The notes beneath the pieces were generated by a model, which worked only from the letters and a program-made list of their open reading frames with translations, was not told the origin of the DNA and did not search any database. A stretch of DNA of 14,366 nt, from positions 1-14,366 of the forward strand of contig JBJCIZ010000253.1 in NCBI GenBank assembly GCA_051294375.1. Reading direction: 5' to 3'. Positions 525 to 13,200 of the stretch are shown in pieces. A program made the translations under genes and the position numbers. Each line of letters begins with the position of its first letter. Positions within the stretch are counted from its first letter, which is position 1. The DNA is from Paraspadella gotoi. Taxonomy: Eukaryota > Animalia > Chaetognatha.

Positions 525-984
525 TCGCAAACGCGATTGCGACAATAAAAATGGTCATCATCGAATTCTTCAGACCTTATTACAGTAAAATAATTATGAA
601 TGGAATTTAATATCTTATATTTTATCTTTGAATGCTCTAGTACCCATACATCAAATTTAAACTTAATCCATCCATCCATTCACAAGATATTGAAGTCTAA
701 AGCGGGGATGGACAGACAGATGGACGGACTGACTTACGGATGGACAGTCAAATTTTTTTTGCAATTTTTTTTTAAATATAATGTTTTAAAATAACTTACA
801 TAACTGACCATTGTGACCAATCAAATTATGATGGGAACCGACTAAGTGAATTATATAACCGGAATCTGCGATAAGCGCATCTAAAAATAATAAAAGTCAA
901 ATCAAAGCTAAAAAAAAAACAAAAAAGTCGTAATCAAATTCAATGTCAATTGGCCATTCAGAGTCGAAATGTTGGACGATGTCG

Positions 985-1075
985 TTAGAATCGGAAATGA
1001 GTCTTCCTCGCCCGCCTTGACTCTTGACAGTCTCCACCACTTCCGGCGAGTCGCTGTGAATCCGCGAGGCCCTCG
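985..1075 (-). CDS. Possible extra last exon, or 3' remnant, of the membrane-protein gene
   Basis: GC-rich island after a ttttttttaaatgtcAG acceptor. With the donor at 3829 it would read HEGLADSQRLAGSGGDCQESRRARKTHFRF*. The frame is ambiguous. Confidence 0.3.
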
Positions 1076-1289
1076 CTGACATTTAAAAAAAATATAAAGT
1101 TAGCATTTTTATTGTTGGGAAAGGCTAACTATACCAATATGGGGGTGGGGAATCTGATGGTAAAATCGTCGCAAACCTCGATATCGCTTGACTACCGGGC
1201 CCTGAATGAGCATTTTTAGCATTTTTTCGAATTTCCAATAATTTTTGTAGTTTATTATTATCCAACTGTTTCCGAGAAAGAAGCTGGAC

Positions 1290-1450
1290 AGACGCTGCAG
1301 GAGCCGGAACTCGTTTTTAGACAAATCAGAAGAACAGTGACGGGAAGAAAGAGAGAGAGAGAGAGAGCACATATTATTTAAAGAAAGAGAGAGAGAGAGC
1401 GACATATAATTAAAATGTTTTTGTTTTGTTAAATAAAAGCATAAACAAAT
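1290..1450 (+). repeat. (GA)n-rich dispersed repeat related to 5120-5421
   Basis: Shares TCGTTTT-AGAC-AATCAG, CTGCAG-AGCC, GA tracts, GACAT-TAATTAAAA and CATAAACAAAT with the second copy. Confidence 0.6.
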
Positions 1451-2022
1451 ACGAATATTGATAGAAACATGAGATTTAAAGATTTTGATGATTTAGAAGC
1501 CAATATATGCAAATTTCAACTCCCTATGATATCACACTTTCAGAAGCCATGATTGCAAAAAAGCGTGACCGAAAGCTAAACCGAATCAAAATCTAGCCAG
1601 GACGGGCTTTGCCGACAGGAAGTGACCATTTTGAGCTTTCTCTTTTTCTCTTACTCGCTTTCACTTACCTATCCCTCAACATCTTTATTTCAATTTCATC
1701 TAAACTTCGCTCCTTTATTAATTTTTATCTGAATTAATTTAAATATTTAAGTTTGTTTAAGTCTGTCTACTTATTTATTAAATTTACGCATTGTTGTACA
1801 TTTTCTAATGTAACTTTTCTCTGTCTCTCTCTCTCTCTCTCTCTCCCTCACTCACTCAAATTTAATTTCTTTTCCCTCACATTCTTTCTCTCTCTCTCTC
1901 TACTAACTTAAAACCTGTCCTCACATTTCACTACTGTCCTGTCTCATATCTTTGTTGGTCATTTCTCTCTCTTCTCTCTTCCAAGTCAATTTGGAAAACA
2001 TGAAAATTGTGAATTGTCAAAA

Positions 2023-2069
2023 GCACTGATGAGTGATGAAGGCTTGAATGAAAACTGAAACTTGTCTGT
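2023..2069 (+). ncRNA. Degenerate minimal hammerhead ribozyme-like motif (Penelope-like)
   Basis: GCA-CTGATGA-(gtgatga duplication)-AGGCTT…AAAACT-GAAAC-TT-GTC-TGT. Confidence 0.5.
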
Positions 2070-2280
2070 ACAATGCTGTATCAAGACTTTGTCTTAATTT
2101 TCAAATATCTAAAAACACAACGAAAGAAAGTTTAATCACAATGTTTATATAATTAACTAATTTTGTTTCCGCTACAATAAGAAATAAAAATTTTTTTAAC
2201 CACTTTCCCGTGCAAAGAAAAATTAATGACTATCACCGTTCAAATTCCTTTGATGAATAGACGCCTTAAGCTTATATATC

Positions 2281-2450
2281 NNNNNNNNNNNNNNNNNNNN
2301 NNNNNNNNNNNNNNNNNNNNNNNNNNNNNNNNNNNNNNNNNNNNNNNNNNNNNNNNNNNNNNNNNNNNNNNNNNNNNNNNNNNNNNNNNNNNNNNNNNNN
2401 NNNNNNNNNNNNNNNNNNNNNNNNNNNNNNNNNNNNNNNNNNNNNNNNNN
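2281..2450. other. Assembly gap
   Basis: Run of N. Confidence 1.
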
Positions 2451-3593
2451 CTTATGATATCATTTTTATCACTGGGTCCCCTTAAACGAACAAAAGGAAT
2501 CCATAAGACGAATTTGACAAGCTCTTAAGATATAACGCTATCGGAATCATTAGTTTTTACAACTGTTTTTTACCCGAATTTCTAGCAATCGCGTTTGAAA
2601 TTTGGGAAGTCAGATTTTAGCGGCAATCTCTATTAGAAAAATGTTGAATTTTTTTTTTTAAGCGACCTTAAGAAATTTATTGATCTTCAGATGCCTGGAA
2701 AGTATCCTTTTCAAGAAAAAAGTGATGAAAAAGAAATAAAGATGATTACATTTAATGATAAAATATTAATAGGTAAAGACAGAAAATGAAAAAGACAGAA
2801 GTTTCTTATTTTAAATTAGATGTCAAAGATTTGCTTCTGTAAACTTATTTCAATAAAGAGAGATAGGATCAAGTCCTTTAAGGCTACCGGATAGGAATCT
2901 GAGATTCTGATCTTTCCCGAATTTCTGATAAAGGAAGAATTACTTCTTTTTCGTCATTTTCAATTTCACCTTTTTATGTCACTGGTTTTTTAGTAATTTA
3001 GGCTCCAATCTGCCACTTCCAGCAAAAAAGTTTTCTACTGTGAGATAGCATGTAAATAAGCTACCCTAACCCATAATTATAATAACGGCCCAACTTTAAT
3101 AACTTTTTCTTTAAAAATAAACAATAGTTTGACCTTTGCATTGTATAAATAAACCAAAATTATTTTTGTCTTTTTAATGTAAAAAAGTCGATTGGATTGC
3201 TTTCAATAATCATTTACTTAAAAAATAATAATTATTAAAATAATAAATATAAAATTAGCAAAGTTTCAACCTAGTTTTAAATGAAAGCAAACCTGTTTAT
3301 TTTTATACATTGAAAAATTTTGATTGAACTTCACCTTTAAAGTGATTGATAAGGTCAAAACAGGGGAAAAATGCTCGTTCTGGGCCCTGTTTTTTAAAAC
3401 TGTTACTTCAAATTATGATAAATACTAGAGTTTATATAATAAAAAATTTAACTTTCTCTTTAGTCTAAAAAAGTAATTTAAATAGATTAATGATCTTAAA
3501 CATTTTAAAATGTGGGGAAAATGAGAAAATGCTCGTTCAAGGCCCGGGAGTCAAACGATTTCGACTAAACAGAGCAATTTCGACCTCACCATC

Positions 3594-3691
3594 AGCAAAG
3601 TTTTTTGAATTTTTTTACAACGATTTTATTTGTAAAAAATGTCTGCTTTACTACAAATAAAATCGTTGTAAAAAATTCAAAAAACTTTGCT
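3594..3691. repeat. Palindrome with about 40-bp arms and a 17-nt spacer
   Basis: 3594-3634 is the reverse complement of 3652-3691 with one homopolymer indel. Confidence 0.92.
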
Positions 3692-3825
3692 AATCTCTTA
3701 CAACAATGAAAGAAAGGATTAGACCATGAAGACCTCACCATCAAATTTCCCACCCAAAAATTGGTCTAATAAGCCTGTCACACCATTAAAAAAATAATTT
3801 TGAGTTTTTTTGAAAGATTTTACCC

Positions 3826-4216
3826 TCACTGTTTCTGGATCCCGTGACACTTTACGCGTTCATCGGCTTCGCCAGTGCAGGTCTCGCAGACGCCTGTAAA
3901 GCGGATGAGGTGAGATCGACGGGTATAACGGTAATCGTCCATGGAGGAAGAGGAAGGAGCCACGTTGATAGAGGAACAGGCGGATTTATAACGAACAGAA
4001 CACGATTCACAAAGATGAAAGCCAGGGATATCCGAGTGATGAGGGAGAGCGGGGACCATAAAGTTTGAGTCAGGTGGCACCGAGTAGACGGAAGCCGCGT
4101 CGATTGTTGAAAAGGAGCTAAAGAATCTGTCGGCGTGGGAGTAATAGACCCCGGAACAGGTGCAATTTTCTTTTGCTTGACGAGGAGGCGATTGATGGGC
4201 ATGAAGACATGGCCCG
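3826..4216 (-). CDS. Distal cytoplasmic exon (GPCLHAHQSPP…CESC…CETC…GIQKQ*), possibly terminal
   Basis: 391 nt, in the frame of ORF 3826..4230. Removing the element and one TSD gives continuous HIHPPSGPCLHAHQ. The TGA at 3826-3828 overlaps a possible GTGAGG donor. Confidence 0.78.
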
Positions 4217-7200
4217 CTAGGGTGTGCCAAATTTCTTAAGTTTTAAATATCTCAAAGAAGATCTACCACAATTTGTAGAGAATACATCGTCTTTTTTCCT
4301 GGTGGCTCAATTTCGATAAATTTGGTACCGATCGACGTGGAATTACGTAGGACTAAGCTCTGACAAACAAAGCCAGAGGTTTTTTTAATATATTCTTATA
4401 CCGGCCAAGGTTGACTGATGGCAATATTGTTAATATTAAGTTTCAAAAAAATCCGACCATAAATATAGAAAATATTAACCAAAATCTTTGGAAAATCCAC
4501 CCCTTCTTTAAAAGATTTTTGCCATAGAAGATTTTTCCCGAATCTGACTCCCGGTTGAAAACTCTTAGAATTCCGATCATTAGCTCCTCTTTTACTTTTA
4601 CTTTACATAAAAATTTTACCAAAATGGACTAATTCACTTTCCCATGGTCGTATCATATCAAAAAAATCTAAAAAGCATAAGGATCGTCGCAATCGCATAA
4701 GAAAAATCTGGATTTACGACAAATTTTGATACTAAAAAAATCAAATTTGAGAAAAGAAAATTAATTTATAAACAGAAAGAAAAAAAAGAATAATAAATAT
4801 AAAACAGTAAAATAACTTATTTTCGAGTTAAATTTTTAGCAAGTGCTTTGTTTGGAGAGACATTATTGAAGGTACTTTTGTTTTACTTTTAGCCTGCATA
4901 AGCGAGCAGTTTGATCGAATGCGACCTCTCTAAACACTGTCAACATTCCCGGACAAACTTGAATCAGACTGACAAAGTGAAGTAAAATAAAATAATAAAG
5001 TAAATATATATTTAAAAAAATATTATTCTAATTGATATTTAGAAAAAAAATCCATGAAAATCTCGGATGTAAATTTAGGAATAAATGGCGATAATAAAAG
5101 TTTTTAGAGGGAAAAAATTAATCAGAGAGAGAGAGAAAGCCAAATCGTTTTCAGACGAATCAGCAGCGGCAGCAGCAGAGGCACCCAGAAAAAAAGAAAG
5201 AAATCAAAAGGCAGCAGCAGAAGCAGCAGGAGAAAAGAGAGAAAAAGTAATAGCCCCTGCAGAGCCAGCTGCAGATTCGTTTTTTTTACCTTTCTCTATG
5301 AATCAGTTACTAGGGAAAAGAGAGAGGGAGAGAGACATGTAATTAAAAGAGAAAAGAGAGAGAGAAAAAAATATGAAAATAAAAGAGAGAATTTGTTTGT
5401 TTTGATAAAACATAAACAAATCATATTTAATAACTGTCCAGACTCAATTTTAAGCATATCAATGATGAGAACCTGTATATAAATTTTCAACTTTATACAC
5501 CCAAATTTAATCATAAAAAAGGCGATCTATAATTTGGAACGCTGACAACGACGACGCCATTTATGCGCAAAAGTGTTACAATATCTAGGAAAGTCTGGCG
5601 TTAAGCGTCCGAGATTAAAATTAGCAAATAATAGTCGTTGTTTTACTCACTGAATAAAATTACTTAATAAAATTACAAAATATATAAAATTGATAAAATT
5701 ATTATTGTGATAACATTGTTCAATCACAGGCAACACATCCAGTACCCTTTTTTTCATTGAAATTGACAGATATCAACTATAAATATCAGAATTAATTTTT
5801 CTTTTTGATACAACAAGAGAACTGAACCTCTGTCGCTGGATGTCGTCAGGTTACTAGTAAATATGCGTTTGAGGATTCCAAATATGTTTTTAAAATTGAC
5901 CTACGTAAACGCTAGAGCGTTGAAAAATAACAAAATATAACAAATCAGGTGAGTTACATAGCTATTTTAGTGTAATGTAGTCTGTAGAATTCGATGGTGA
6001 TAACCTTTTTTTTATAATTTTATCTTTCTTGTCGGAAATGATGGTTTTTAAATGTATATAAAATTTTTATAAAATAGCAAAAGCATTATAAGTTATGATA
6101 AATCAAATTATTAAGATTTTATAAAATTTATATGAGCTTTTGAAATATAAAAAATAAAACTTATAAAAATATTTTGGTAAGTTTATTTCTAAATTTTATG
6201 TTTTATAAAAAGTTAACTATATTTATTAATAATTAATGAGTAAAAATTAGGTTAAAGTTAAAAAATAATAATTTCAAAATTTTTTTCATGGATTTGCATT
6301 CTTTGCAAAAGTTGATATAAGAAAATATAATTTTTATATCAAAATTATGTCATTAATTTGGTCAAAATTCAGAAAAACTATAATTTTTAAGCTAAAAAAT
6401 TGAAAATTGAACAAAAATAATAGTTTTGAAGAGACAGAAACCGTTCAATATAAGCAGTCCCTGAGCTTCGGATTCAGGCTGTAACACCATGTTACAGGCG
6501 GGTTAAGCGCCCCTCCCTCTTAACTGCCAGACGGCCACCGGGCGGCTAGAACCCCCGGACCTTTGGGTTGGGAGGCGAATGACTTGCCTCCGGCACCAAT
6601 GGCCGCTGATGACTGTTGGTGGATTTTAGTCCACCATACATCCCCCTCCCATAGGGAGAAGTCTGTTGCGTCTCTTCAGTGAATTGTTGTTGGTGGAAAG
6701 TTCGTCACCAAGAGTTGAGGCATGTCCGCCTGATGTGTTGTGGGCGGAAAAGTGCATCGCCAGGTTGAGGCATGTCGCCTGAAGTGTTGTTGTTGCTGTT
6801 GTGTTCGGAAATCGGGCTCACCAATGAAGAGACAGTAATTATTGATAAGTGTTATTGACAGAACCGTTCAATATAAGCAGTCCCTGAGCTTCGGATCAGG
6901 CTGTAACACCATGTTACAGGCGGGTTAAGCACCCCGTCCCTCTTAACTGCCAGACGACCACGGGCTAGAACCCCGGACCTTTTGGGTTGGGAGGCGACAT
7001 GACTTGCCTCCGGCACAATGGCCGCTGATGAACGGTTGTGGATTTAGTCCACCATAGTTTTTAAATATTTTTAACCTACTTAATGAAAGAATTTTTTTAA
7101 ATGGATTATACTTGCGGTAGCCGACCAAATTCAAATTTTAATGGGAACAGTAATTAAACTAATCCATTATTGCTATTAATTATTGTATTAAAATATTTTT

Positions 7201-10200
7201 TTGCCAAAAATGTTCCGAACCATGAGTAATTCGCTAATTAAATATTATTATATTGCTATATAATGTCAAAATTTTTTTTAGATATTTTAAGTTTTTTTAA
7301 TTGATTCTGATAGAGCTTAAAAAGTTAAGCAAAAATATAATTACAACTTTTAAAATTTTGCTGTTTTATTACTAAAAATTAATAAAAACTGCTAAATCAT
7401 CGGATGATGATGATGATTTTTTAAGGTTTTTCCCAATTTTGACCCACTTATCATCAAAATATTGAAAAAAAGAATATACTTTGTGTAGACAACTTTTTAT
7501 AAGCTATCTGAATCTGCTTTTAAAATTACAAATTTTAAAAAAATTTTGACATTTCCTATCTATAAATAAATATTAAAAATTAATTACTAATGCTTCTAGC
7601 CATTTTTAGAAAATTTTGGTCCATTGAAAAGTTTTCTCAGAAATGTATGAAGTTTCATTTAGAGAGGTTCCCCAAATCAAACTTCTGACCCACCCCATTG
7701 ACAAAGTTTGGCTCTAATTATACTTTCTTATACAACTTTTTGTAAAGGAATTCAAATCCGGTTTTAAAATTTAAATTTTTAAATTTTTTATTTTAGCTTA
7801 TTTTTTATTATTATTCAGTATTTACAGAGGAGGATTTAGCCTGCCGTCCAATTCTCCTCTTCCTCTTCTTCTTTTTCCTCCTCCTCCTGCCCCTCAGTAT
7901 ATTTTGTCTAGCGATATATTCTCTCGTTTCTACTCTTCGTGAAATATACCATTATTGTCCCTCTATTTCTTCACGCCTTCAATACCCCTCAAGTGACGCC
8001 CTCTTCGCGGCTCGACACCCTACTCCCCGTGGATTAAGTTTTCCGTGCAAACCCTCAGCAAAAAAAACTGGAAATTCCCTCAAGAAACTCGTGCATTAAA
8101 AACCAAAAACAGAAATTTGGAAATATGCTCAATTTGATAGAAGAAATATAACTATTTTACTAAATTACTTCAAAAAAGAAACTGCATAATTTTAAAAATA
8201 TAAAACCCTACCTTATGTTAATTACATGATAACTTTCTCCTTTCTCTTCACTCTTCGTCAACCGAAACTTGGAATTTTCAAAATCTAAACATCAAACTTT
8301 GAACCTGGCGACTAAAAACAAGATCGATTCAACTCTCTTTTTCTTTCTTTCTCTCTCTCTCTCTCTCTCGGCGACTGAAAATGGCAAAAGTTGAGATTGG
8401 ACTTTAACCTCTTAAAGAAACGGAAATAGCAAGTCCCTTAATGTGGAATATAGAATAGACACTCCCTGAAAATGGCAGCAATCAACTTTAAAGATCCAAT
8501 CAGTTCTGATGACCTCAAAGGAGAATATATTGGCATCTTGGATAACCTGATTAATTTTTCTAAAAGATTGCATACTAATAATGCAAACCCACGAATTCTG
8601 GACAAGAATATAATGAATCTACTTGCTTTGGTGCAGAATACACATATGTCCCCTCTGCCTTTAAAAACCCAAACTGTCTCCACCTCAACTCAAACCTATT
8701 TCACCCAAGCCAATGCTTCAACCCAGACCACAAAAACCAAGGCCAGTTGCAATCAATCTACTCAGACAAAATTTCCTTACTTAACCTCCTCTTCCCAAAC
8801 TACCCAAACCACCATCATTTCTGATTCAGTTTCAACTCAAACCAATGTTGCCAAGACTGATTCTCAAGTGCAGACCGACCTACCAACTGTCAAAGACTAT
8901 ACTAATGATGTGAAAACTCAAGCTGGAAAAATCCAAGGAGAAACTTCATTTGCAAGAATCAACTCAAACAAGAATCAACACAAAAATCAAGCCTGCTCTT
9001 ATCAGTCTTCGGTCAAGAAATGGGAAACAAAATCAAGAAATGAAAGAACTGGACCCTGGAAAGAATACATGATCCCTCAAACCTGCGCTGAAAAAATCTA
9101 TATCCCCCCTCATCGACGTGTTCCTCAAGACGGCAAGAAGGCAAGCAGCTTTTGGAAAATGCAAAAATACTTACCCTAAACTGATGGAAATAGACTTACG
9201 ACATGGTTGCGCCAGAAGTTTGCTGCATTTTTGGCTCAGACTTTACCATTGCTTTTTTTAAGAATCAATATCAGTCATGGTGCAGTGGCATAATTTGTCA
9301 ATGACTGTGACATAAATTAAAAAAAAACTTTTAATCATTTAAATAATAGCTTTGATAGAAATCCAATAGTTTTAGTTTGTGACTTCTCTCACTTTTTTAG
9401 TTCTGTGTCTTTGTTTTTTTTAGTCCAGAGGGAAGCATGACGATGTCATGCCACGCCATTGGGGGCCTGGACATGACATCTTGGTCAAGAATTCAGTTGT
9501 ATCCTGATATGATTGACAAGATTAAAACCTTGATCAAGAATGATTTAAAAATGTACACAAGACTCAAAGTCGCCCAAAAATGTTTTGTATCTATTTAGAA
9601 TGTCAAAGCTCATTATAATTCTTGCAGAATATGATATGGATTACTCAATACCTCCCTAGCTAATTATATTAAAAAATTCGAGCTCGATATGGATATGATT
9701 TCAAATAAAAAATATCTAAAAAATTATCCTTCCATTTTTTCATCATTTTCATCAAAATGACAATCCTGAACATACTGAAAATATTTATCTTAATTAAAAA
9801 CAACTATATAATAGACTCCAACCCCTGTCACCAAACACCAAACATATTTTTAGCTATTAATTTGTTTTTAAAAAATTCTTTTATCTTTCATTAAAATTTC
9901 AAAGTTTTATATTTTATAAAGATTTTGTTTAAAATTAATACCAAAAAATATCCTATTTTGTTATTTTTTTTAATTTTATATGAAAATTTGAAAAATTACT
10001 AGTTTCACTATCTTATATTTTATATTTTATGAATGTTTTACTATTTAAACTGTGTATAAACTATCAATTTTGTTGCGTTTTGAAATTTAGGAGAAAAAAA
10101 AATTTATTTGTTTTTATCAACGAATTGTATTATTGTTAATACATGTTTCGACTCTTGAGTTTTGATGAAGCTCTAAAACTCAAGAGTCGAAACATGTATT

Positions 10201-13200
10201 AACAATAATACAATTCGTTGATAAAAACAAATAAATTTTTTTTTTTCTCCTAAACTATTTAAACTATATTATTTAATTATATATATATTACTTTTTAAAA
10301 ATATTATTTGCTTATTATATCTAATAACTCATTTGGGAGGGGGAGGTCAGTGTTGTCTTCTGGAAATAGAGGGAGCATCTATACAACACAAGGTTAGACT
10401 ACAATAGAATACAATTAGACTACAATATCTAATTTAACATCATTTGGCTTCAAATTATTAAAGATAACCTTTCCCTTTTAAATCTTAGCAAATTAGATCA
10501 TAAGTTTATCAGTTATATCTTAGTTTTAAAGATCCTTTCCTCAATTAAAAATTGCCTCCTTTTATTCAGTTAACTACTAGGTAAACCAAATAATTACCTA
10601 TTACCTACTTAAGAAAAAATCTTTGCCTAAGTTCACCCTTTAATCTCCAGCAGATTGTTGGTGCTGTTGTTAAGCTCAGAAATGTAGTTGAGACTTGAAA
10701 TTCAACAAGAATAAACTTTTTACATTTCTTTAACTGTTTGATGAGAGTGGACGCTGATATCTCTCATAGTTTAGACACAATGAATTATGATGTGCAAGGT
10801 GTGCCAAAAATCCTTCAAGTGCCGGTAGCGCTAAGAGTGTTTGAATTTGAATAGCAATTGATGGAAACCTATTTTTTTAGGCCTCCACAAATTGTGTAAG
10901 ATGTTCTTTGAGATATTTAAAACTTGAGAAATTTGGCAAACCCTAATGGCCCGCTCGGCGGATGAATGTGCTCTGCCTTTTCTGAATGGATGTCGGCCTG
11001 GACGACATGGTATGGAGAACCGCAATCGTTGCCAGATGAATTGTAGTCTTCTTCCTGAAGGTCAGCAAAACTTTCCTCGCTGGCGACAGGCGAGACGTCA
11101 TTGAATAAGTGGCAATTGGGTTGTTGTGATCGATTCACGGACTTGCTCTTTGCGGAATCTTTCTTCGTCGCAGTTTTTTCTTTTATCCTTGCGTCCAATC
11201 GATTATAGGTAACTCCCCATTTGATTTTCTTTTTGCAACACGAGCAACAGAGATGTCCACATTCTACTTTTTTGAAGCAGACGGAATTTCCAGAGAGAAA
11301 TATATATAAAAATATTGCCATGGTAATAAGGGTGCCCACAACAGCAATTGGAATCCAAGTTGACCCTGGAACTGGTGTCGTCCATTTTTCGTTAACTGGC
11401 AAATCCGGATTTTCCCAATTATTCTTAATAATTTCAGGTTAGGGTATGCCAAATGCCAAAAGTTGCTCGGATTTCAAATGAGGTCCAGGATAATATGTGG
11501 AAGCCTAAAAAAATATGTTAGGAACGATCGCCATTTAAATAAGTTAATTACTGGCCGTGCTACCCTGCCTGAATGATCTTTGGCACACCTTTCAGTTCAT
11601 AATTCATTGTGTCTAAAAGTTTTTGGGTCCACTTAAGTTTATTAGTTGTAAAAGTATATGAAGTTAATTCAAATAAATTTTCAGATCCCAACTACCTTTG
11701 GAGGCTCTGCTGCAGCATTTATAACATGCTGGAGGAGGTGGTAGCTATTTTTTGAGTGCTGATGATACTATAAAAGGTTCCTATAAATTATATTCATTAA
11801 CAACTAATTTGTACAGTTTTTAAAATTAACAATTAAAATTTAAAACTAACAATTATATTCATTAACAGAGGAGGATTTAGCCTGCCATCCAATTCTCCTC
11901 TTCCTCTTCTTCTTTCCTCCTCCTGCCTCTCAGTATATTTTGTCTACTGTCTAGCGATACATTCTTTCGTTTCTACTCTTCTTAAATTATATACAAAATA
12001 TATATCTATTAATTAAATCGTAAGACAGTTTAATAAAAATTTTTGCTAAGTCTTATATTGATTGACCAACTACTTCTCATGGGGACCTTTTTTGAAGGAT
12101 TCTGAAAATTTATCCCCACACCTCATCAGTTAAATATGCTGGAGAATGTGGACAAAGGCTGCTGATGATAAAGCTTTTAATTAAAGAATAAAATCCTTAT
12201 TTTTGACTAAAATATGGTCATATAAATGATACGATAATCATACCATTACTTGTGATACATAATGATTATAGATCAATATATTTGCTATTAAAACTTGATA
12301 AAATATGATTTTATATATATGATACGACACCTACGCCACTTATGCCCAAAAGCGTTACAAGATAACTTCATATACTTTTACAACTAATAAACTTAAGTAA
12401 ACACAAAAACCTTTCTTACTTTAGATACAATGAATTATGAAGTGAAAAGTGTGCTAAAAATCCTTCAAGGCAGGGTAGCACGGCCGGTGATCAACTTATT
12501 TAAATAGCGATTGTTCCTAACATTTTTTTGGACCTCCACATATTATCCGAGACCTCACTTGAAATCCGAGCAACTTTTGGCATTTGGCACACCCTAATGG
12601 CAGGTGGAGGCGTCGTCGTAGTCTTGGCATTTTGAGTCACAGGCGCTGTCGTAGATTTGTCCATATGGGTAACTGTCGAAGATGTGTTTGTAGTCTTGGC
12701 GTTGTAAGAGGTACGGTCGTTGTCTTGGCGGTGAGGCGGAGGCATGGGTGAGGTTGTAACTGTGGCGGTTTGGGTAAGAGGAGGCGTCGGACGGTTTGTG
12801 AGAAGCTGCCTCAAACGATCTACTGGAAAATCAACGTACCTTGAAGAGAAAAGATTTTTTATTTCCTTCTGTTTTTGAATAAAATATTAAGTTGGATTGT
12901 TTTCTGGTCTCACCACATATTCACATTCTCCATCGACGCCTTTCCAGATTTTGTTTTCTCAATAAGAAATCCCATACAATAAGCGAGCATAAGGTGTCCC
13001 AAGTGAAACGTCCCGGTTGGCTTAGTGGAGCCTTTGTAGATCTTGATCCAGTTGGCCTTGGAGGAGTTATGACAATCGGCGTCGGCCGAGCCTTCGATCT
13101 CGAAGAGGAGCGGAGCCGAAGCCTCCGTTACCGACGTGAACGAAAAGTTGAGGACGACCTGAAGTGAATGAAAATCGAGACCAAATTTTAAATCACTGTC

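Follow-up and report, generated by a model that had tools for sequence, protein, structure and literature searches.

How can a coding exon take in a 6.7-kb transposon and still be read in frame? For the Paraspadella gotoi locus studied here, the preliminary description had proposed that the last base of the element and the first base of its target duplication together form the 3′ splice site, and that removal leaves 12 nt in the mRNA. We examined this proposal in the whole 14,366-nt stretch of DNA (the window), which is AT-rich and repeat-rich, comes from a gapped assembly and contains part of a eukaryotic gene on the minus strand. Seven of 11 runs (X1, X2, X6, X7, X9, X10 and X11) were compared with the window, and X3, X4, X5 and X8 were left out. 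None of the 11 is on record as RNA: X1 (study P1) is presumed to be RNA, X7 (study P3) is listed as "DNA?", X2 and X6 are DNA-type runs (the assembly may derive from X2), and X10 and X11 come from other organisms in the same study as X1. Contigs assembled from these runs report the presence of a form and not its efficiency, and minor forms drop out of them.

The gene was traced through the following coding exons.

12912–13158, minus strand: upstream coding exon; resembles discoidin (F5/8 type C), a likeness seen solely in language-model features
12593–12837, minus strand: Thr/Pro-rich coding exon preceding element 2; placing its 5′ boundary 2 nt further makes the adjoining intron GT..AG and 74 nt long
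10942–11423, minus strand: coding exon between elements 2 and 1, with a hydrophobic membrane-like segment and the start of the tail
3824–4216, minus strand: last coding exon, stop codon TGA at 3828–3826

Spliced together, these exons give a single open frame, 454 codons long, that runs from 13158 to the stop, and the encoded protein combines a stalk rich in Thr and Pro with a hydrophobic segment and a tail rich in Cys, Ser and Tyr. The likeness of the upstream exon to discoidin (score of 0.93, 147 of 256 language-model features in common) is a lead only, and this exon gave no Pfam match. Downstream of element 1, the main frame was the best of the three by position-specific base use (+4.8 versus −3.8 and −20.9; scoring trained on two of the three exons). 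An alternative open frame of 127 codons over the last coding exon (3852–4235, minus strand) scored below the main frame and was rejected. Protein searches for orthologs with three exons yielded no match from 194, 28 and 41 candidates, and the two matches obtained from 50%-representative proteins were both tandem-repeat proteins and were dismissed as noise. Nothing in X10 or X11 aligned with the exons at 80%. The layout of the protein and the types of repeat in the window suggest, with fair probability, an invertebrate host.

The exon pair 10942–11423 and 3824–4216 is separated by the large insertion, element 1, whose parts are as follows.

4218–10945, no strand assigned: element 1, a non-autonomous insertion of 6728 bp in which many repeats are nested
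4218–4280, no strand assigned: left inverted end, 63 nt, mismatched with the right end at 6 positions
10883–10945, no strand assigned: right inverted end; its first four sense bases, TAGG (10945–10942), are kept in the mRNA, and the donor GT is at 10941–10940
10946–10954, minus strand: upstream target duplication, wholly exonic
4209–4217, minus strand: downstream target duplication; on the sense strand the intron ends with its first base, G (4217), and the other eight are exonic
4217–4219, minus strand: acceptor TAG, with TA from the element end (4219–4218) and G from the duplication (4217); the exon restarts at 4216 in the X1 and X7 contigs
4217–10941: element 1 intron, 6725 nt, GT..AG

The coordinates given in the preliminary description proved correct. 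The 9-bp sequence ATGGCCCGC occurs twice in the window, at 4209–4217 and 10946–10954, identical in both copies and in each case directly flanking element 1; the chance of an exact 9-bp match at a set place is about 2e-6 given the local exon composition. Together with the 63-nt inverted ends, this duplication provides the hallmarks of a transposon. Both ends open with TAGGGT[G/T]TGCC, so that the element reads TAGG/GT at its start on the sense strand (the slash marks the splice cut) and CCCTA at its end, followed by the G of the duplication. The summed contig depth of X2, which is not a copy number, was 8,087–17,581 over the element ends versus 197 in a unique exon bin, showing that the ends belong to a multi-copy repeat family. 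We searched for a transposase, and none of 66 reading frames of at least 45 aa matched one in Pfam. A 241-aa open frame inside the element at ~8454–9179 (plus strand), which had neither a Pfam match nor a usable Atlas match, is covered by diverged contigs from several runs and is probably part of a nested repeat. The interior also holds a G+C-rich repeat in two copies that are 91% identical (6433–6638 and 6857–7056), and these copies had the top summed depth across all same-organism runs compared.

The predicted junction was looked for in transcript-type sequence, and the joined sequence contains it as an 18-nt stretch. In the 1358-nt contig of X1 (record 1), letters 1–483 correspond to 11424–10942 and letters 484–876 to 4216–3824, with no other letters and no gaps. 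The 1796-nt contig of X7 (record 16) carries 3824–4216 as letters 483–875 and 10942–11423 as letters 876–1357, with one other letter in the latter piece. In both studies, 10942 is thus joined to 4216 with zero letters between, the joint being taken from abutting alignment pieces of the contigs. The donor at 10941 and the split AG at 4218/4217 are therefore those that had been proposed, and so is the outcome: relative to a single target copy, splicing adds 12 nt, and PSGPCL becomes PSGPLGGPCL with a four-residue scar. Other in-frame donor/acceptor pairs of the element were considered, among the GT/GC-AG pairs near its ends that keep the frame open, including an AG at 4235 that would give +30 nt; they are at odds with the contigs. 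Neither an allele with an empty site nor an ortholog or paralog across the insertion site was found in the runs compared (rows listed) or in the protein and metagenome searches, and the 12-nt gain is therefore stated relative to a reconstructed target. The duplication and the open frame suggest that the exon was once continuous.

Neither the ordinary 74-nt intron nor either of the two elements, 1 and 2, is present in the X7 contig (abutting pieces 13105–12912, 12837–12593, 11423–10942 and 4216–3824), and the X1 contig lacks the third intron described below. These contigs therefore represent processed transcripts or copies thereof. The latter possibility, i.e., that a processed copy of the gene or a deletion allele in the DNA gave rise to the joined contigs, which would then not report present-day splicing of the locus, would suit the "DNA?" entry of X7 and the guessed RNA status of X1. 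Paralogous sequence does exist, as a spliced 4095-nt contig of X1 (record 6; depth 446 versus 107–120 for the contigs of the window gene; 24 differences over 250 nt) and as a 3544-nt contig of X6 (record 30). However, the joined contigs match the window exons with zero to one other letters, while the paralogs differ at 24–40 places; they align only over 12762–13161, where they share the position of the ordinary intron, and not across the stalk, the tail or the scar. Among the rows listed, moreover, the DNA-type runs gave unspliced pieces only, and these run over the ends of both elements (3787–4263, 10909–11476 and 12570–12820 in X2; 3767–4305, 10909–11458 and 12568–13105 in X6). A retrocopy would itself record the splicing of element 1, and we consider a DNA origin of the joined contigs very improbable.

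The preliminary description had generalized from this junction that every insertion with a G-first duplication keeps the frame automatically and leaves four residues. The length part of this rule holds, as the reading frame is kept. Its extension to every G-first insertion proved false, because a duplication that starts on a codon boundary turns the retained TAG into an in-frame stop. We simulated the scar at 1332 positions of the coding sequence, 271 of which are G-first. An in-frame TAG arose at all 120 G-first sites in phase 0 and at none of those in the other phases (0/65 and 0/86), i.e., at 120 of the 271, and the G route passes at only 151 of the 1332 positions (11%). Elements 1 and 2 both lie off phase 0, which fits the stop constraint for the two cases available. 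The identity of the two duplication copies had been taken as a sign that both are exonic. It does fit that reading, and the intronic copy at element 2 has indeed diverged at 2 of 9 bases, but it is weak evidence of exonic constraint, because zero mismatches in nine positions has a probability of 0.26–0.41 at the divergence of the inverted ends with no constraint at all. At the protein level, the four extra residues are predicted from the scar; they would probably be harmless, because the scar is located within the low-complexity tail.

A second element in the same gene allowed a comparison of landing sites.

11440–12596, no strand assigned: element 2, a relative of element 1 of 1157 bp whose inverted ends (~230 nt) are 86% identical
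11424–12592: element 2 intron, 1169 nt, GT..AG, net −3 nt, in frame
12597–12605, minus strand: exonic target duplication, first sense base A
11431–11439, minus strand: intronic target duplication, 2 of 9 bases differ from the exonic copy
11424–11425, minus strand: acceptor, a host AG 7 nt past the downstream duplication; X7 record 16 joins 12593 to 11423

One end of element 2 resembles the right end of element 1 over ~190 nt (71% identical), 136 bases of the two interiors are 85% identical, and the donor is again TAGG/GT. The element end reads TAA and not TAG, because A is the first sense base of the duplication. The acceptor lies beyond the duplication, and the downstream copy is therefore intronic. 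A G at the first position is thus not required: with an A-first duplication, element 2 is spliced in frame via the host AG, a junction known from one contig (X7). The element end together with the following AC spells CTAAC, 19–15 nt before the intron end, which may serve as the branch point. X1 contigs stop exactly at the limits of this intron (12593 and 11424), while the junction of element 1 lies inside an unbroken contig. The breaks suggest mixed forms at element 2, retained or alternative.

The splice signals of these introns are weak. The donors GTTTGC and GTGTGC differ strongly from the usual consensus, and a pyrimidine tract is missing at the acceptor of element 1. Weak signals and long inverted ends raise the question of whether the elements are excised by SOS splicing, which is triggered by inverted repeats and, according to the available parts of PMC12779559, clears animal mRNAs of DNA transposons with inverted repeats, with small indels left behind. 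In the pre-mRNA, the two ends of each element are able to pair (duplex energies of −81, −323 and −53 kcal/mol for element 1, element 2 and element 3, the repeat at the third intron), and the X1 contig breaks at 12593/11424, if they do reflect more than one form, would agree with such a process, alone or as a hybrid with the spliceosome; the GT..AG junctions would then be the isoform that survived decay and contig cleaning. The same parts of PMC12779559 describe SOS splicing as spliceosome independent, with many junctions that are rarely GU-AG, whereas all three repeat-derived introns of this gene have GT..AG ends and single junctions, minor forms being invisible in contigs. The junction of element 1, moreover, was the same in two studies and inside unbroken contigs, and only 63 nt at the ends of this 6.7-kb element can still pair. 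An SOS splicing substrate is also defined by its dependence on AKAP17A, CAAP1 and RTCB. We therefore favor the spliceosome on the basis of the three GT..AG junctions and regard SOS splicing, including the hybrid form, as unlikely; pairing of the ends may nevertheless help removal.

The third intron of the gene coincides with a decayed inverted-repeat element (ends at ~1082–1161 and 3737–3815, 75% identical).

1076–3823, minus strand: third intron, 2748 nt, GT..AG; joint 1075–3824 in X1; net +5 nt, 2 nt after the stop
594–1075, minus strand: final piece of exon, modelled here as 3′ untranslated; X1 record 1

A likely 9-bp duplication flanks it (1070–1078 and 3823–3831, one mismatch). The donor is composed of the last duplicated base and the first base of the element, the acceptor comes from the duplication, and a CTAAC motif is found at −28. 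The mismatched base makes TGA in the upstream copy and CGA in the other. The 116 nt that follow the intron (960–1075) have a G+C content of 56%, like the coding exons and unlike the sequence beyond (30%), and contain two stop-free frames. Because of this resemblance, they may be a former coding tail that was cut off when the third element landed, and the protein may originally have extended further. Thus, the last three introns all appear to be transposon made, the third less securely than the others. Conversion of a transposon into an intron likely happened three times in this gene, each time within what seems to have been a single exon of ~1.6 kb. More palindromic or inverted-end elements are present at 3591–3694, 7200–7613, 10086–10254, 1178–3564 and 479–2032, several of them nested in the large introns, and in X6 a joint of 3581 to 3731 suggests that copies of the third element exist which lack the 3591–3694 insert. 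The last exon further contains a short (GGAC/AGAC)n-type repeat at 700–750 that is common to runs of two other organisms and that we take to be reminiscent of Helentron/DINE-1 microsatellites.

The explanation that we hold with high confidence is that element 1 is a non-autonomous inverted-end transposon which entered a coding exon with a 9-bp duplication and is removed, likely by the spliceosome, at a GT 4 bases inside the element and an AG made of its last base and the first duplicated base, at a gain of 12 nt. That the spliceosome makes the cut is our inference. The symmetric TAGG/GT end would provide a weak donor, and as both ends start in this way, either insertion orientation would supply it. 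The landing site would then set the acceptor: with G first, the element end would complete the AG (element 1), and with AC first, it would complete a CTAAC branch-point-like motif, a host AG 16 nt further on being used (element 2, net −3). Insertions that create a stop or a frameshift would be purged by selection, so the in-frame cases seen here may be the survivors. Splicing would have been established first, and the interior would then have been free to decay and to gather nested insertions.

Two wider readings of the family can be drawn from the locus. In the simpler one, the elements form a specialized introner family that follows the G rule genome-wide, with exonic copies mostly G-first and spliced at +12 nt. 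This reading is compatible with the explanation preferred for element 1, and it draws on the multi-copy ends, on the TAGG/GT donor of both copies in the gene and on the symmetric ends that were kept in two subfamilies although these ends are only ~71% identical. Against it, one of the two family members in the gene is A-first with a host acceptor, and the in-frame stop at nearly half of the simulated G-first sites (counts above) speaks against a simple G rule. The scans, too, provided no further copy with flanks: one metagenome scan for an end pattern gave no matches, another gave 331 pattern matches with no confirmed locus, and the viral scan gave no matches. We therefore treat a genome-wide G rule as a tentative possibility. 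Equally speculative is the broader reading, in which the Mutator-like TAGG/GT family would be a genome-wide intron maker whose 3′ end has two jobs, completing an acceptor before G and, before AC, a branch point that activates the next host AG. Old copies would swell to multi-kilobase introns that similarity-based introner surveys miss, transposon-made introns of animals would be undercounted, and the three consecutive introns described here would be such products.

Transposon insertion as a source of introns is well known; a classical case is reportedly the maize Ds element (Giroux 1994). In the available parts of Yenerall and Zhou 2012 (PMC3443670), intron gain by transposon insertion uses the element ends or latent sites nearby and results in near-precise spliceosomal removal, as at element 2, whereas the classical model involves an AGGT target duplication, which is not needed here. 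Element 1 works like an introner: it is removed at splice sites carried or co-opted on insertion, as seen in the GT..AG joints of the X1 and X7 contigs. The excerpts of Gozashti et al. 2022 (PMC9860276) consulted here describe splice sites that are wholly or partly recruited from the duplication or the adjoining exon. The closest parallel therein is provided by the introners of Aureococcus sp. (Fig. 2F–G), where a DNA transposon spliced from a coding exon leaves the mRNA longer by 12 nt (the paper counts 4 from the element and 8 from the duplication) and the protein longer by four residues. In that family, however, the element itself is said to bring both splice sites, whereas the acceptor of element 1 is split between element and duplication. 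The same excerpts give median lengths of 30–654 nt for introner families and define a family by at least four similar introns at different loci; by comparison, element 1, with its nested inserts, spans 6.7 kb and has a duplication of 9 bp, and we have two related introns in one gene, with multi-copy ends. IE1 of Micromonas pusilla and other introners that carry the 5′ site and co-opt the 3′ site, as presented in part of PMC11282704, likewise combine an element-borne donor, an acceptor from the duplicated target and inverted ends. IE1 is short with a 3-nt duplication, whereas element 1 co-opts just one base of its AG and its sister copy uses a host AG outside the duplication. In the accessible part of Dataset file 8 of PMC12130899, Trifolium repens fam11 is entered with "9bp TSD" and "carry 5′ co-opt 3′"; PMC12130899, as far as available, also lists a Mutator introner family in Amoebophrya, and labels for nematodes, rotifers, crustaceans, an annelid and insects are absent from that part of the file.

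By its structure, the element appears to be Mutator-like. Mutator-like elements share the 9-bp duplication (elements 1 and 2) and long inverted ends (~230 nt in element 2 and 63 nt left in element 1) according to the parts of PMC9168764 at hand, but their termini are given there and in PMC12130899 as GG or GGG, although not universally, whereas TAGGG is found here. Because none of the 66 frames encodes a recognizable transposase and the termini are atypical, element 1 was not filed as a member of Mutator. The TAGGG ends are, we presume, reminiscent of those of hAT elements. In the available rows of PMC12130899, however, hAT duplications are 8 bp; both related elements here have 9 bp, and an 8-bp parse breaks the symmetry of the ends. 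A literature search for Mutator-like elements that are spliced with a branch point gave no match, which does not show that the branch-point variant is unpublished.

The mechanism of intron gain, the 12-nt, four-residue scar and the co-option of acceptors are already published. The locus shows cleanly, and with transcript support, a large, decayed transposon that acts as an intron, and element 2 in the same gene serves as a natural control for the landing sequence setting the acceptor. For coding-exon copies genome-wide, this predicts G or AC/AT at the first duplication position and no phase-0 insertions. In the consulted parts of the two surveys, animal introners were found in only two groups in 2022 (PMC9860276), to which the 2025 survey (PMC12130899) added a sea urchin and a validated tunicate case. 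The present locus would add to this short list of introner cases in animals.
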